DNA of 60,000 nucleotides from Mobula hypostoma (lineage: Eukaryota), in NCBI RefSeq assembly GCF_963921235.1, contig NC_086107.1, forward strand, positions 95,296,001 to 95,356,000, read 5' to 3'. This document shows, in pieces, positions 22,817-35,891 of the stretch; within the stretch, counting starts at the first letter, position 1; every line of letters starts with the position of its first letter. Under the pieces are notes generated by a model, which worked only from the letters and a program-made list of their open reading frames with translations, was not told the origin of the DNA and did not search any database. Position numbers and translations under genes: made by a program.

Positions 22817-22945
22817 TCAGCAGCATTTCTTGACGGCAGGCTTCTTCTTGGGCTTGTTGATCTTCACCACCTCGTTCTGCTGCTGCAGGCGTGCCAGGTT
22901 GTCCTTCTTGCACTTTAGCACCATGAAGGTGACCGCGTTAAACAT
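22817..22945 (-). CDS. Rab35-like exon 6 (terminal)
   Basis: cag|ATG TTT AAC...TGC TGC TGA; polybasic tail plus CC. Confidence 0.95.
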   Translation of the reverse strand: MFNAVTFMVLKCKKDNLARLQQQNEVVKINKPKKKPAVKKCC

Positions 22946-25900
22946 CTGGGGGTGGGGGGAAAGAGAGCAGTGCAGGGAGATGGGAGGAGGATGTGTGGTT
23001 AGGGCAGGGAAGGAGAGAATAGGTTCATTTTCCCTTGGTAACTGACTGCCCCCCACCCCATCGCCTATCACCATTCCCTCCCTCAATAAATGCCCCCCCC
23101 CTCAATAAATGCCCCCCTCCCTTCTCCCCCCACCATCCCCACCCCAAAACACGATCCATCCTCCAATGCCAACCATCTCATGCTCAGTAAAACCCACCCT
23201 CCTGGACTAACCTTCTGTGGGTCACTACCCGTGGGAGAGCATCACGAGGGCATTGGAGGGTGAGGCAAGAGCCACAGAAGGGGACTCGGAGGGAAAGGGG
23301 AGAGGGTCTCAGGGAGAAAGAGGGGGTGGGGGACTTACAGGGGAGAGGTTGGGAGAGAATGCAGAAGGAGAAGAAAGGATCTGTGTTGGGGGGGGAGAAT
23401 CCAATAGGGGAAGAGGGGGTCCTGGGCAGGGGAGGGAGGGGGGAAAGGGGAGGGAGGGGGGAAAGAGGAGGGAGACGGGGAGGTGAAGAGGAGGAAGGGG
23501 AACTGGGAAGTGGGGAGGGGGTGGAGTGGTGAGAGAATCTCAGGAAGGGAGCGAGAGGGTCCTGAGAAAAAGTGTGATGTGAACCTTCACTTCCCCTCTC
23601 TCCACCACCCAAGCCGTCCCCCACAGCCCGCCCATTCCACCCACCTCCTCCACGTTGGTGTTCTCCTTGGCGCTGGTCTCGAAGAGACGAATCCCCACCT
23701 GGTCGCAGAAACGCTTTGCGTCAGCGTATTCCACCTGCCGTGCTAAGGGGTCTTCGTTCTTGTTCCCCACTGAGGGTCCGAGGGAGAGAGAGAGAGAGAG
23801 AGAGAGAGTCAGAGAATGAAGGAGCCCAGGGAGAGTGTGTGGTGGGGAGGGTGGGAGAGAGCGCGGTGTGGGGGGGAGGGGGAAGGGGGAAAGAAGAGGA
23901 GCATTGGGGAGGAAGGGATAAGGGAAGTGCAAGGGACCAAGAGGTGGGAGAGGTACGAGATGGGGGATGAGGGAGAGGAGCTCCAGAGAACCAACCCCCT
24001 TTCCCCCACCTTTGTAAGCCCTCAGAATTCCCTTACCCAGGACCTTGGAGACGGTGTCGCAGTTCTGACTGATCTCGTGCAGCCACCTCTTGACGTTGAC
24101 GAAGGACTCGGGGTTGGTGACATCATAAACTATGATCACCCCATGGGTGTTGCGGTAATACCTGAAAGAGTGATGTTTGTGGGTGGGGAGACACAGGTTG
24201 GGGAGTAGTCAGCAGCCTGCCAGACACATCGTCACACGAACCCCACCAACCTCTTCACCCCCTGCCCCAGCCCTCATTCTGTCCCACTCTCCCTCACTCA
24301 TGCCGGGAGATCATTCCTACACATTCGATCATGCGCTCCACCTCTTCTCAGTCCAGGGGCACTGAGCTGGGACGTGGTGCCCTAGCTCTGAAAATCTGGA
24401 CAGGAACATTTCAGATCCTGAGCAACTTTCAGTCTAGTAAGTGGGAACACAAATAACCAGGAAAGCTTGGGAGAAAGTTTTAATATCCCAAGTTGCTTTG
24501 ACAGTCTAATAAGTAGAAGAGCAGGAGATTACAGAAGCTTGAACAGGGGTTCCCAGCCTTTTTTAATGCCTTGGACCCCGACCATTACCCGAGGGATCTG
24601 AGGACCTCAGGTTGGGAACCCCTGCTTGAGAGAAACATTAACAATCCTGAGGGGTTTAGACAGTCTAGTAAACGGGGAGATTACAGAACTAAGATCGCTA
24701 GATAGTAGCATACACAAAATGCTGGAGGAACTCAGCAGGTCATGTGGAAGTGTATAAACAGTTTACGTTTCAGGCTGAAACCCTTCTGCAGGACTGGAAA
24801 GGAAGGGGTAAGACACCAGAATTAAAAGGTGAGGGGAGGGCAGGGGAAAGACTAGCTAGAAGATGATAGGTGAAGTCAGGTGGGTGGGAAGGGGTTGGAG
24901 AAGAAGGAATCTGATGGGAGAGGGAACCAGGAGATAATAGGCAGATGAGAAGAGGTACTGTAAGAGGCCAGAGTGACGAATGGGGGTGGGGGGTGGGGGG
25001 TGGGGAGAGGAAAATTATTTTTTTTACCGGAAGGAGAAATGGTTATTCATGCCATCTGGTTGGAGGCTACCCAGATGGAATACAAGGTGTTGATCCTCAC
25101 CCTGTGGCAAAAGAGGAGGCTGTGGACCGACAAGTTGGAACGGGAATGGGGATAGGAATTAAAATGGTTGGTCACCAGGAAATTCCACTTTTGGCGGATG
25201 AAGCGGATTTGCTTGACGAAGCAGTTCGCCAACTTGCATTGGGTTTCACCAACGTAGAGGAGCACTGGAAGCAATCCCAACTGATTTGCAGGTGAAGTGC
25301 TTCCTCACCTGGAAGAACTGTTTGGGGCTCTGAATGGAGGTAAGGGGAAATGGGCAGAAGTAGCTTTTTGGTTGCTTGCAGGGGTATGTACCAGAAGGGA
25401 AATCAGTGGGGAGGGATGAACAGAGAAGGAAATCACAGCACCTCATATTTTCTGTGAAAAGCAGAGAGTGAGGAGGAGGTAAAGATGTTTGGTGATAGGA
25501 TCCCATTGAAGGCGGCGGGAGTTGTGGAGAATGATGTGTTGGATGCGGAGGCTCATGGGTGGTAGGTAAGGACAAGAGAAACTCTATCCGTGTTAAGGTG
25601 GTGGGAAGATAGGTGAATGCAAATGCAGGGAATGCAGGTAAGGACAGCATCAATGGTGGAGGAAGGGAAATCCTGTTCTTTGAAGAAAAGAAGGACATGT
25701 CTGATGTCTTGGAAAGGAAAACTGTACCCTGGGAACATATGCAGCTGAGAGATAAACTGGGAGAAGGAAAAAGCATTTTTACAGGAGACGGTGGGGAAAA
25801 AAGTATAGTCAAGATAGTCGTGGGAATCGGTAGGTTTATAGATGTTGGCAGACAGTTTGTTTCTAGAGATGGAGACAGGGAAATCGAGAAAGAGGAGGGG

Positions 25901-34900: not shown

Positions 34901-35891
34901 ATGAGCCAAAGGGTCTTTTTCCCTCCTGTGAGACTTGTCCACATAAATCCCCGTGCACTCTTTCCATTTTAGCAACATCTTTTTTCCAGCATGCGACCAA
35001 AACTGAACACAATATTCCAACATCTCTTACAACTGTCCTATGACCCCAAACTCCTGTACTCAGTGGCTGGACTGACGAAGGCCAATATGCCAAGCTCCTT
35101 ATTCACCACCCTGTGATGTCTGGGTCTCTCTCTTCTGCAACAATCTCCAGGGCCCCGGCATTCACTATGAAAGTCCTACCCCGGTTGGCTCTTCCAACGT
35201 GTAACACCTCAAACTTCATTGAATGAAGCTGCATTTGCCATTCCTCAGAACACTTCCCCAGCTGATCTAGATTCCCTGTAAACGCTCATAATATTTCTCA
35301 CTGAAGCAGCACCAATTTTAATGCTGTGTTTAAATTGCTAAGCATGCCTTGTACAGGTAGACATGACAAAAGGCCCAGCATCGAGCTTTGGGAAACACCG
35401 CCAACCACCGGGCCTCCATTCCGAGAAACATCCTTCCCATGCAGCTTCCTACCATCCAGCCGGTTGTGAGTCCAGTTTGCCAGAGCCGGTGTGATCGAGG
35501 ATCATTCTCTCAGACTTCCTCGTCTCGGACTCTCTCCCTCTCCTTCCTCTTTACCCAAAATGATACACCTCTCTACGCCCTCCCACTGCTCAAGCACTTT
35601 CATTTTCCCTCGCTCCTTCCCTTCCTCTCTCACCTCTTCCCCCTCTAATCTTACTACCCTACCCTCTAATTTCACTATCCCACCCTCTAATCTCGCTATC
35701 CCACCTCCATCTCCCTCTCATCACTCCCCCTCCTCACATCTCTGTCCCCTCCACCCTCCCTCTCCCCCCAATCATCCCCACTTCGCCCCCCAACCATTAC
35801 CCCCTTCCCCAAACCCTCCTCTCCTTCTTCTCTCACCGCTGTCTCCGATGATGAGCAGTTTGAACAGATGGTCATAGTCCCTGCCCGCCAT
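22817..35891 (-). CDS. Ras-related protein Rab-35-like (divergent RAB35 paralogue), 202 aa; complement join(35837-35891,28783-28833,28254-28377,24037-24161,23645-23769,22817-22945)
   Basis: [203 protein letters not shown]1-G5 boxes and the CC prenylation motif are intact; exon sizes 55/51/124/125/125/129. Confidence 0.95.
23645..23769 (-). CDS. Rab35-like exon 5
   Basis: cag|TG GGG AAC AAG...GAG GAG|gtgggt; GNKN and ETSAK. Confidence 0.95.
24037..24161 (-). CDS. Rab35-like exon 4
   Basis: cag|G TAT TAC CGC...CTG G|gtaagg. Confidence 0.95.
24705..26370 (-). mobile_element. Degenerate Penelope-like retroelement in Rab35-like intron 3
   Basis: Fragments [35 protein letters not shown] and [15 protein letters not shown], homologous to 12321-14469. 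Confidence 0.85.
27460..27720 (+). mobile_element. Rex1/Babar-like LINE fragment
   Basis: GTGAGCAGCTTCAAATTCCTGGGCATCAACATC ([11 protein letters not shown]) and SLRRFG motifs. Confidence 0.6.
28254..28377 (-). CDS. Rab35-like exon 3
   Basis: cag|GC AGC TAC...TCC AC|gtaagt; IGVDFK and WDTAGQERF. Confidence 0.95.
28475..28690. repeat. Tandem repeat of about 80-85 bp, about 2.5 copies, in Rab35-like intron 2
   Basis: Repeated GGGCACACTGTCCTCTCC...CCTGGACCTGGTATTGGACACACCAT. Confidence 0.8.
28783..28833 (-). CDS. Rab35-like exon 2
   Basis: tag|GA GTG GGA AAG...TCA G|gtagg; [17 protein letters not shown]. Confidence 0.94.
29505..30072 (-). mobile_element. Penelope-like 3' fragment with a hammerhead motif
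   Basis: [17 protein letters not shown]...[25 protein letters not shown] plus a 3' region matching the other copies. Confidence 0.85.
29595..29630 (-). ncRNA. Minimal hammerhead ribozyme motif
   Basis: Minus strand AGTC-CTGATGA-AGGGTCTCTGCCT-GAAA-C-GTC-CACT; core intact, one stem I mismatch. Confidence 0.55.
30570..30730 (+). mobile_element. V-SINE (HE1-like) remnant
   Basis: tRNA-like head, then GAGTTTGCAC..CTCCCTGTGGGTTTCCTCCGGGTGTTCCAGTT..CACATTCCAAAGA, a V-domain. Confidence 0.65.
31165..34890. repeat. Complex satellite of about 3.7 kb (31-35 bp units with higher-order blocks) in Rab35-like intron 1
   Basis: Recurrent core AACTCACTGGGAAAC(AC)AGTCAGCAGATGGGAC; multi-unit blocks recur (for example about 32120-32450 and 33620-33930). 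Confidence 0.92.
34050..34320 (+). mobile_element. LINE 3' end (Rex1-like) inserted into the satellite
   Basis: AATAGCTTCTTTCCAACTGTGATAAGACTGCTGAAC, an AT-rich tail and CAATAAAGT; flanked by AAACTC on both sides. Confidence 0.7.
34930..35510 (-). mobile_element. CR1-type LINE fragment, degenerate
   Basis: Minus strand [11 protein letters not shown] and [17 protein letters not shown] CR1 remnants. Confidence 0.65.
35837..35891 (-). CDS. Rab35-like exon 1
   Basis: ATG GCG GGC AGG GAC TAT...AGC G|gtgaga. Confidence 0.93.

Follow-up and report, generated by a model that had tools for sequence, protein, structure and literature searches.

To our knowledge, work on Rab35 has been all but confined to mammals, flies and worms, each with a single gene, and to zebrafish, through rab35a and rab35b. 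The latter are examples of extra RAB35 copies in fishes; both genes have been treated as RAB35 paralogues in knock-out work, and the passages of that paper devoted to them speak only of Rab35A and Rab35B (PMC9458672). In the parts of a 2012 survey of Rab evolution that bear on this family, Rab35 is derived from Rab1 and an increase in Rab genes from 38 to 62 is attributed to two genome duplications, and its Rab35 passages do not describe a second RAB35 (PMC3425129). No description of a second RAB35 common to jawed vertebrates was found in the literature consulted, most subscription journals and supplementary tables lying outside its scope. As for gene order, a gene list for a human single-nucleotide polymorphism at 12q24.23 gives CCDC64 (= BICDL1) as the nearest gene, RAB35 as the second and GCN1L1 as the third (PMC7188784, in the list concerned), an excerpt of a mouse study lists Rplp0, Rab35 and Ccdc64 together at 115.6 Mb of chr5 (PMC10496549), and in the synteny passages of a further paper zebrafish rab35b adjoins gcn1l1 and pxnb, and tetrapod pxn is flanked by gcn1l1 and rab35 (PMC5091871). 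Here we describe a second Rab35-type gene, for which the name RAB35L is used, at 22817-35891 of a 60,000-nucleotide stretch of the genome of the ray Mobula hypostoma (contig NC_086107.1, positions 95,296,001 to 95,356,000; hereafter the window). A model of this gene already exists in the automatic annotation, where it is labelled only 'Rab-35-like'. RAB35L is a member of a paralogue clade that extends across jawed vertebrates and is distinct from canonical RAB35. We consider it likely that the locus is an intact and constrained gene for a second Rab35-type GTPase, an ancient duplicate that probably arose by genome duplication of a RAB35-BICDL block and that was lost in mammals.

Stop-to-stop open reading frames (ORFs), with exon boundaries set by reading their flanks, resolve RAB35L into six exons on the minus strand (Table 1). 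Once joined, they amount to 609 nt and 202 codons with a single terminal stop and none internal, and GT-AG borders are present at 5/5 introns. The spliced protein is identical at 202/202 positions to P0001, the RefSeq 'ras-related protein Rab-35-like isoform X2 [Mobula hypostoma]'. The complete 202-aa six-exon ORF of Rab35 type announced by an earlier reading of the window from its letters alone (the sequence-only reading) was therefore recovered in full, and all the peptides quoted there ([35 protein letters not shown]; tail [12 protein letters not shown]) are found in the protein. Identity to like-named models is 99.5% in Hypanus, 99.0% in Hemitrygon, 90.6% in Narcine, 92.6% in Scyliorhinus and 91.6% in Rhincodon.

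The first intron of the gene carries, at 31162-34889, about 3.7 kb of a degenerate minisatellite (repeat unit 32-34 bp) in which sub-arrays have periods of 56, 65, 99 and 155 bp and which gives rise to numerous short repetitive ORFs on either strand. In the RefSeq 'isoform X1' (P0002, 204 aa), the first exon is an alternative one that maps to 34885-34944 on the minus strand, within the minisatellite, and the P0002 protein is devoid of strand beta1 and of the start of the P-loop; this first exon is probably an annotation artefact or part of a non-functional transcript.

The ray genome also holds a separate canonical RAB35, as the sequence-only reading had supposed, so that RAB35L is not its only RAB35. 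When the 3.48-Gb assembly was searched with exon 3, 21 matches were obtained at E <= 0.001, the best of them other than RAB35L itself lying on contig C2 with 95% identity. There a gene of six exons with canonical splice sites, encoding 201 aa, was mapped to C2:157134268-157262076 (~128 kb of a 252-Mb contig). Its exons measure 52/51/124/125/125/129 nt, against 55/51/124/125/125/129 nt in RAB35L, the phases are the same, and the two proteins are identical at 155/202 aligned positions (77%). The protein encoded on C2 is 99.0% identical to catshark RAB35 and 94.0% identical to bovine RAB35, and the gene is therefore the slowly evolving canonical RAB35.

The relationships of RAB35L were examined by database searches and by two maximum-likelihood trees. 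In a search with full-length P0001, 8000 candidates were scored, 7544 of them fell at E <= 1e-40 and the best 120 were listed; among the matches listed, the nearest outside elasmobranchs came from coelacanth, axolotl, lungfish, skink, caecilian, python and rattlesnake (84-89% identity), and canonical RAB35 sequences stood at about 74-78% identity. A quick tree of 65 rows (63 database proteins and two proteins of the ray genome) placed RAB35L in a 28-row clade with a Shimodaira-Hasegawa-like approximate likelihood ratio (SH-aLRT) support of 98. This clade comprised seven chondrichthyans including elephant shark, the ray-finned bichir, sturgeon, bowfin and five teleosts, a sarcopterygian set of coelacanth, lungfish, salamander, caecilian, frog, four squamates and a turtle, and three unnamed sequences; the teleost 'Rab-35b' rows and the C2 gene of the ray fell outside it. 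For a careful tree, a low-quality turtle model and two aberrant mammal isoforms were dropped, and among the 40 rows used a 23-row RAB35L clade was recovered with support of 100/98 and in 100% of 200 bootstrap trees, with the Rab35 of amphioxus, a hemichordate, an echinoderm, an annelid and a coral outside it. In trees that include Rab35 from cnidarian to amphioxus, RAB35L nests among the metazoan Rab35. When the RAB35 and RAB35-like sequences of all chondrichthyans were constrained to a single clade, the log-likelihood fell by 72.7, and the approximately unbiased (AU) test rejected the constraint (p = 1.53e-8). Since the RAB35L clade holds both chondrichthyans and osteichthyans, the duplication is older than the split between the two, and in the tree its node lies after the invertebrate chordates and deuterostomes and before the gnathostome crown.

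The clade is also set apart by individual residues. At the Gly of YYRGTHG, which is kept in 17/17 rows of canonical, cyclostome and invertebrate sequences, 23/23 rows of the clade have Asn81; Lys116 stands in 22/23 clade rows at a position that is Arg in 17/17 others. Ile87, Asn93, Pro94, Arg179 and Ile189 are nearly fixed in the clade, whose members also have one extra residue after the start codon. With Asn and Lys at the columns of human Gly80 and Arg115 and a separate 100/98 clade, RAB35L is not an orthologue of canonical RAB35. The tail motif [15 protein letters not shown] is nearly invariant in sharks, coelacanth, lungfish, salamander, caecilian and squamates, and has diverged in ray-finned fishes. 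RAB35L is 93.1% identical to its orthologue in catshark, 89.1% in coelacanth, 88.1% in axolotl and 85.1% in skink, a pattern of conservation that points to clear constraint. Identities of 85-93% cover here roughly 300-450 million years, and their persistence over hundreds of millions of years indicates that RAB35L is not a chance open frame. Evolution in the clade is roughly twice as rapid as in canonical RAB35, with 85-89% identity between the ray and tetrapods or coelacanth against 94% between ray and cow for the canonical protein.

By score and by tree RAB35L belongs to the Rab35 subfamily. The Pfam Ras family (PF00071) matches it with 200.7 bits against a cut-off of 21.6, and among solved structures three human Rab35 sequences come first (325.5, 322.2 and 322.1 bits), followed by Rab1B with 224.7 bits; RAB1A and RAB1B, at about 60% identity and 225 bits, are thus its next-nearest solved relatives, clearly below the Rab35 score. 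An AlphaFold2 model built from a 40-sequence alignment reached a mean predicted local distance difference test (pLDDT) value of 80.5 and a predicted template modelling (pTM) score of 0.76, in keeping with the six-stranded sheet and five helices of the Rab fold. With this model, the top six Foldseek matches were Rab35 chains (80-82% identity; template modelling score 0.85-0.87), and all 50 matches shown were Rab-family GTPases (Rab35, Rab1, Rab8, Rab10, Rab3, Ypt1) with a probability of 1.00 each, and a search of the ESM Atlas returned generic Rab clusters only. In the model, Asn81 lies in the loop past the switch-II helix (68-78), Lys116 on strand beta5 and Asn93-Pro94 at the start of helix alpha3, and numerous other substitutions fall in helices alpha4 and alpha5.

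Compared with canonical RAB35 (human and mouse; 3TW8, 6EKK, 6IF2, 6IF3), RAB35L shares the six-exon structure and phases of the canonical ray gene and is about 81% identical to human Rab35 over residues 3-181, in line with the Foldseek value. It has the same P-loop, switch I, interswitch and Q68 (human Q67), and its polybasic tail and CC end are kept. The Thr that corresponds to the LRRK2 site is likewise retained (human T72, as given in the relevant passage of PMC11691468). It differs in the additional N-terminal residue, in Gly to Asn81, Arg to Lys116 and SA to NP at 93-94, in the G4 box, in the alpha4 and alpha5 changes, in a tail motif of its own, in its faster evolution and in its position beside BICDL2 and not BICDL1. 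The changes are unevenly spread, as the sequence-only reading had noticed when it described an almost identical N-terminal half and a strongly substituted second half: by hand count, 34 of the 179 residues aligned with human Rab35 are mismatched, seven in residues 3-105 and 27 in residues 106-181. Residues 4-80 are the same save positions 52-53, and most changes lie past residue 80, so that switch I and most of switch II are indeed common to the two proteins. The claim of a different surface for guanine nucleotide exchange factors (GEFs) finds no support, as RAB35L agrees with canonical RAB35 in switch I, in the interswitch and, as far as residue 80, in switch II.

The description of the G boxes as intact stands for G1 (GDSGVGKS), the switch-I Thr (T41), G3 (DTAGQE) and G5 (ETSAK), which are canonical in the alignment, and fails for G4, which reads NKNE and not NKND. 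Here Glu takes the place of the Asp that contacts guanine, the carboxylate being kept on a side chain one carbon longer; in a 46-row alignment, D and E alternate at this last position among the 24 clade rows, and D is present in 22/22 canonical, cyclostome and invertebrate rows. The RabF motifs are commonly given as IGVDF, KLQIW, RFR.IT, YYRGA and LVYDIT; RAB35L has IGVDF, KLQIW and RFRTIT, with YYRNT as RabF4 where canonical Rab35 has YYRGT, and IVYDVT as RabF5. The protein ends in KKCC, a predicted geranylgeranylation site. The membrane-targeting tail had been regarded as different, which is so for its sequence but not for its chemistry, since the polybasic character and the CC end are conserved (seven Lys in the final 15 residues of RAB35L and seven Lys or Arg in those of the canonical ray RAB35, by hand count).

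The upstream neighbour of RAB35L is BICDL2, as the sequence-only reading had stated. The two genes lie on the same strand, with about 7.6 kb between the BICDL2 stop and the RAB35L ATG. BICDL2 was recognised from the coiled-coil composition of its exons and then by a search against named proteins: with the exon at 44580-44726, 187 of 251 candidates were found at E <= 0.01, and among the best 120, which were listed, all informatively named proteins were BICDL2 ('BICD family-like cargo adapter 2', 'bicaudal D-related protein 2', 'BICL2') save one, a 200-aa fragment of Mobula birostris labelled BICDL1. The most conserved stretch of the M. hypostoma BICDL2 protein (P0126), residues 354-387, is encoded at 44586-44714. 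Searches of the PDB with single BICDL2 exons gave no match, and a scan of the window for the CC1-box motif found none, because the first BICDL2 exon lies outside the window. In four batoid species, rab35-like and BICDL2 proteins are encoded on chromosome-length contigs of matching size, which shows that they share a chromosome but not that they are adjacent.

Two further BICDL paralogues were detected when the ray genome was searched with BICDL2. An exon at C78:3.21-3.28 Mb matches residues 146-220 of mouse BICDR1/BICDL1 with E 4.8e-29 and nearly all positions identical, which identifies the C78 gene as the BICDL1 orthologue. The same 39.5-Mb contig carries RPLP0 (1.346 Mb) and PXN (1.405-1.425 Mb; wider limits 1.40-1.43 Mb). 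A third BICDL-family gene, at C71:38452426-38486666, of which one exon matches mouse BICDR1 with E 1e-11 only, may be a further paralogue missing from mammals. Canonical RAB35 had been expected next to BICDL1 in this genome and is not there, RAB35 being on C2 and BICDL1 on C78. A search with Pfam Gcn1_N across the ray genome had no match anywhere, controls included, and is uninformative on GCN1. Separately, the BICDL2 exon with the N-terminal CC1 box has four matches (46-51% identity) on the plus strand within 2.6 Mb at C40:33.7-36.3 Mb, which may be members of one tandemly arrayed family of adaptor-like exons or genes.

To account for these observations, it may be proposed that the early vertebrate genome duplications copied an ancestral RAB35-BICDL block, one copy of which would have become RAB35-BICDL1, whose genes remain neighbours in human and mouse, and the other RAB35L-BICDL2, whose genes remain so in the ray; canonical RAB35 would then have moved off the PXN-RPLP0-BICDL1 chromosome in the ray lineage, and RAB35L would later have been lost in mammals. 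The timing of the duplication and the occurrence of the three BICDL paralogues on as many contigs (C45, C78, C71) fit such early genome duplications. Of the proposal that RAB35L is the sister ohnologue of RAB35, the ancient paralogy is borne out by the separate canonical gene, the 100/98 clade and the AU test, and an origin by whole-genome duplication is plausible. The associated idea of a retained pair of Rab and dynein adaptor holds for RAB35L and BICDL2, which are adjacent in the ray, but RAB35 and BICDL1 are unlinked there, and a duplicated pair emerges only from the comparison of ray with mammals.

At the protein level, RAB35L may be expected to act as a geranylgeranylated GTP/GDP switch with a polybasic tail, located like Rab35 on phosphoinositide-rich membranes of the plasma membrane or recycling endosomes, and it would probably be handled by the same activators (DENND1-type GEFs), TBC GTPase-activating proteins (GAPs) and Rab escort protein/GDP dissociation inhibitor (REP/GDI) as RAB35. 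The changes fixed in the clade (Asn81 past switch II, Lys116 on beta5, Asn93-Pro94 at the start of alpha3, and others on helices alpha3 to alpha5) could shift the choice of effectors. Thr76 and Thr81 of Rab35 are reported to give specificity for ACAP2/RUSC2, a site that would presumably put the Asn81 of RAB35L at the ACAP2/RUSC2 interface. BICDL2 itself belongs to a family of adaptors whose C-terminal coiled coil binds Rab GTPases, BICDL1 pairing with RAB6 and BICDL2 with RAB13. It could be imagined that RAB35L is a distinct Rab with effectors and a membrane address of its own, as Asn81 and the near-invariant tail might suggest, that 450 million years of linkage to BICDL2 mark a functional partnership, with the Rab recruiting the dynein adaptor, and that mammals lost this pathway or passed it to another Rab; we regard this as improbable. 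A predicted complex of two copies of the C-terminal 141 residues of BICDL2 with RAB35L 1-182, GTP and Mg obtained a score of 0.02 (mark 0.34), which speaks neither for nor against binding, and the adjacency of RAB35L and BICDL2 is explained by inherited synteny alone.

Other origins of the locus have to be weighed against duplication of the block with the genome. An ancient small-scale (segmental) duplication of the RAB35-BICDL block on the vertebrate stem is unlikely but deserves some weight, given that the evidence spans only two linked families, RAB35/RAB35L and BICDL1/BICDL2, and that the canonical partners lie on different contigs in the ray; nevertheless, the duplication node falls within the interval in which Rab genes rose in number, a rise that the survey, in the part concerned, attributes to genome duplication (PMC3425129), and the three BICDL paralogues would suit two rounds of duplication better. 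A far younger event, in which RAB35 was duplicated in sharks and rays only and one copy diverged fast, would agree with the annotation of the gene in rays only as 'Rab-35-like' and with a second half far more substituted than that of canonical RAB35. Yet the diagnostic residues are present in bichir, sturgeon, bowfin, teleosts, coelacanth, lungfish, three amphibian orders, squamates and turtle, and the AU test rejects a single chondrichthyan clade; the careful tree and this test together refute a recent lineage-specific duplicate. The sequence-only reading had named nesting inside the canonical RAB35 clade, as a recent lineage-specific duplicate, as a result that would refute it, and a clade that spans chondrichthyans, actinopterygians and sarcopterygians speaks against such a duplicate; the probability left to the younger event is practically negligible. 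Hardly more credible is a decaying or mis-annotated copy without function, that is, a pseudogene or an artefact of the gene model. The Glu in G4 in place of the canonical Asp could be read in this way, and isoform X1, with its start in the intronic minisatellite and its missing P-loop start, does look artefactual; the open frame is nonetheless intact with all splice sites canonical, the conservation described above has lasted over hundreds of millions of years with a near-invariant tail, the 5' end is CpG-island-like, and the predicted model folds confidently as a Rab.

Several observations weigh against the ancient genome-duplication origin and subsequent mammalian loss that we prefer, or against parts of it. 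Canonical RAB35 is not recovered as a supported clade in its own right: its sequences, too similar to one another to form one, make up one side of a branch in only 11% of bootstrap trees. In the careful tree lamprey and hagfish RAB35 is sister to the RAB35L clade (91/89, unstarred). The separation of canonical RAB35 (C2) from BICDL1, PXN and RPLP0 (C78) means that the block of 12q24 type is broken in the ray, and the argument from block duplication therefore needs a relocation of RAB35 in the ray lineage. As regards loss, mammals account for none of the clade (0/4 mammal rows in the quick tree) and no bird appears among the 120 matches listed to P0001, both as judged by the names of cluster representatives only. 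No AATAAA or ATTAAA is present within 2.5 kb downstream of the RAB35L stop, the Glu in G4 might affect the guanine contact, and the GEF, GAP and effector roles suggested for RAB35L are drawn from its sequence identity and from known Rab35 complexes.

On the downstream side, the sequence-only reading had named HCFC1R1 as the other neighbour, and a gene matching Pfam HPIP, to which HCFC1R1 belongs, is found there, convergent with the 3' end of RAB35L. Beyond it, a WD40-repeat exon gave generic WD40 matches only among the 60 shown. On the other flank, Pfam searches over 150 ORFs gave nothing useful, with an ALKBH8_N match at 36885-37085 (E 1e-4) and two weak matches; the ALKBH8_N match, on the minus strand between BICDL2 and the RAB35L promoter, is taken by us to mark a probable transposon-derived fragment and not a gene. 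No RNA family of Rfam was found in the window. An ORF at 300-671 on the plus strand has a degenerate Pfam Histone_H2A_C motif (E 1.2e-6) and looks like a fragment of a histone H2A pseudogene. At about 12300-14450, on the minus strand, there is an interspersed repeat of high copy number that contains a long ORF (13127-14449, 441 aa); C2 holds many copies of the repeat with up to 96% protein identity in tblastx, enough to swamp the comparison of the window with the genome; this high identity indicates a recently active retroelement family.

Table 1. Features of the RAB35L locus and its surroundings (window positions unless a contig is given)
Feature	Coordinates	Strand	Remarks
RAB35L exon 1	35837..35891	-	ATG at 35891; 55 nt; end phase 1, donor GT; equals the N-terminus of P0001
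RAB35L exon 2	28783..28833	-	51 nt; remainder of P-loop, GVGKS...FSG; AG acceptor, GT donor
RAB35L exon 3	28254..28377	-	124 nt; encodes switch I, the interswitch and, with DTAGQE, switch II; top matches in the PDB: Rab35
RAB35L exon 4	24037..24161	-	125 nt; YYRNTHG; clade-specific Asn81, Ile87, Asn93-Pro94, Lys116
RAB35L exon 5	23645..23769	-	125 nt; G4 box NKNE; G5 box ETSAK
RAB35L exon 6	22817..22945	-	129 nt, stop codon TGA included; encodes helix alpha5, the polybasic tail and the predicted CC prenylation site at the C-terminus
CpG-island-like stretch, probable promoter	35600..36400		over exon 1 and upstream flank; GC 0.62-0.68, CpG observed/expected 0.87-0.95; composition only
BICDL2 exons 2-8	43555..58534	-	residues 89-460 of P0126 (Mobula hypostoma BICDL2), mapped in seven pieces
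BICDL2 exon 1	C45:95359355-95359624	-	outside the window, 3.4 kb beyond
HCFC1R1	18249..19967	+	two exons match Pfam HPIP: 18249-18422, E 5.3e-6 (above cut-off); 19776-19967, E 0.0026
WD40-repeat exon	3910..4191	+	WD40, E 9.7e-7; fits THOC6, identity unproven

Taken as a whole, RAB35L is a neglected vertebrate paralogue of RAB35, not seen in mammals, and not a new kind of system. It is not to be confused with the teleost Rab-35b of electric eel, tarpon and medaka or with the cypriniform copies, which, unlike RAB35L, go with canonical RAB35; in the teleosts that keep a gene of the RAB35L clade (Astyanax, hake, sole, perch, medaka), it is a further gene in addition to the canonical copies. The results indicate that many jawed vertebrates, among them medaka, cavefish, axolotl, frogs, lizards and sharks, possess a further conserved gene of Rab35 type, which automatic annotation calls 'Rab-35-like' or even 'Rab-35'. 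Knock-outs in such animals may consequently be masked by redundancy, orthology tables may mix both genes, and the number of Rab genes counted in vertebrates may be too low by one. The change from Gly to Asn past switch II, fixed in the clade, would offer a natural experiment on the effector selectivity of Rab35, and RAB35L may in this way be useful for Rab35 biology in non-mammalian models as well as for the orthology tables on which such work draws.

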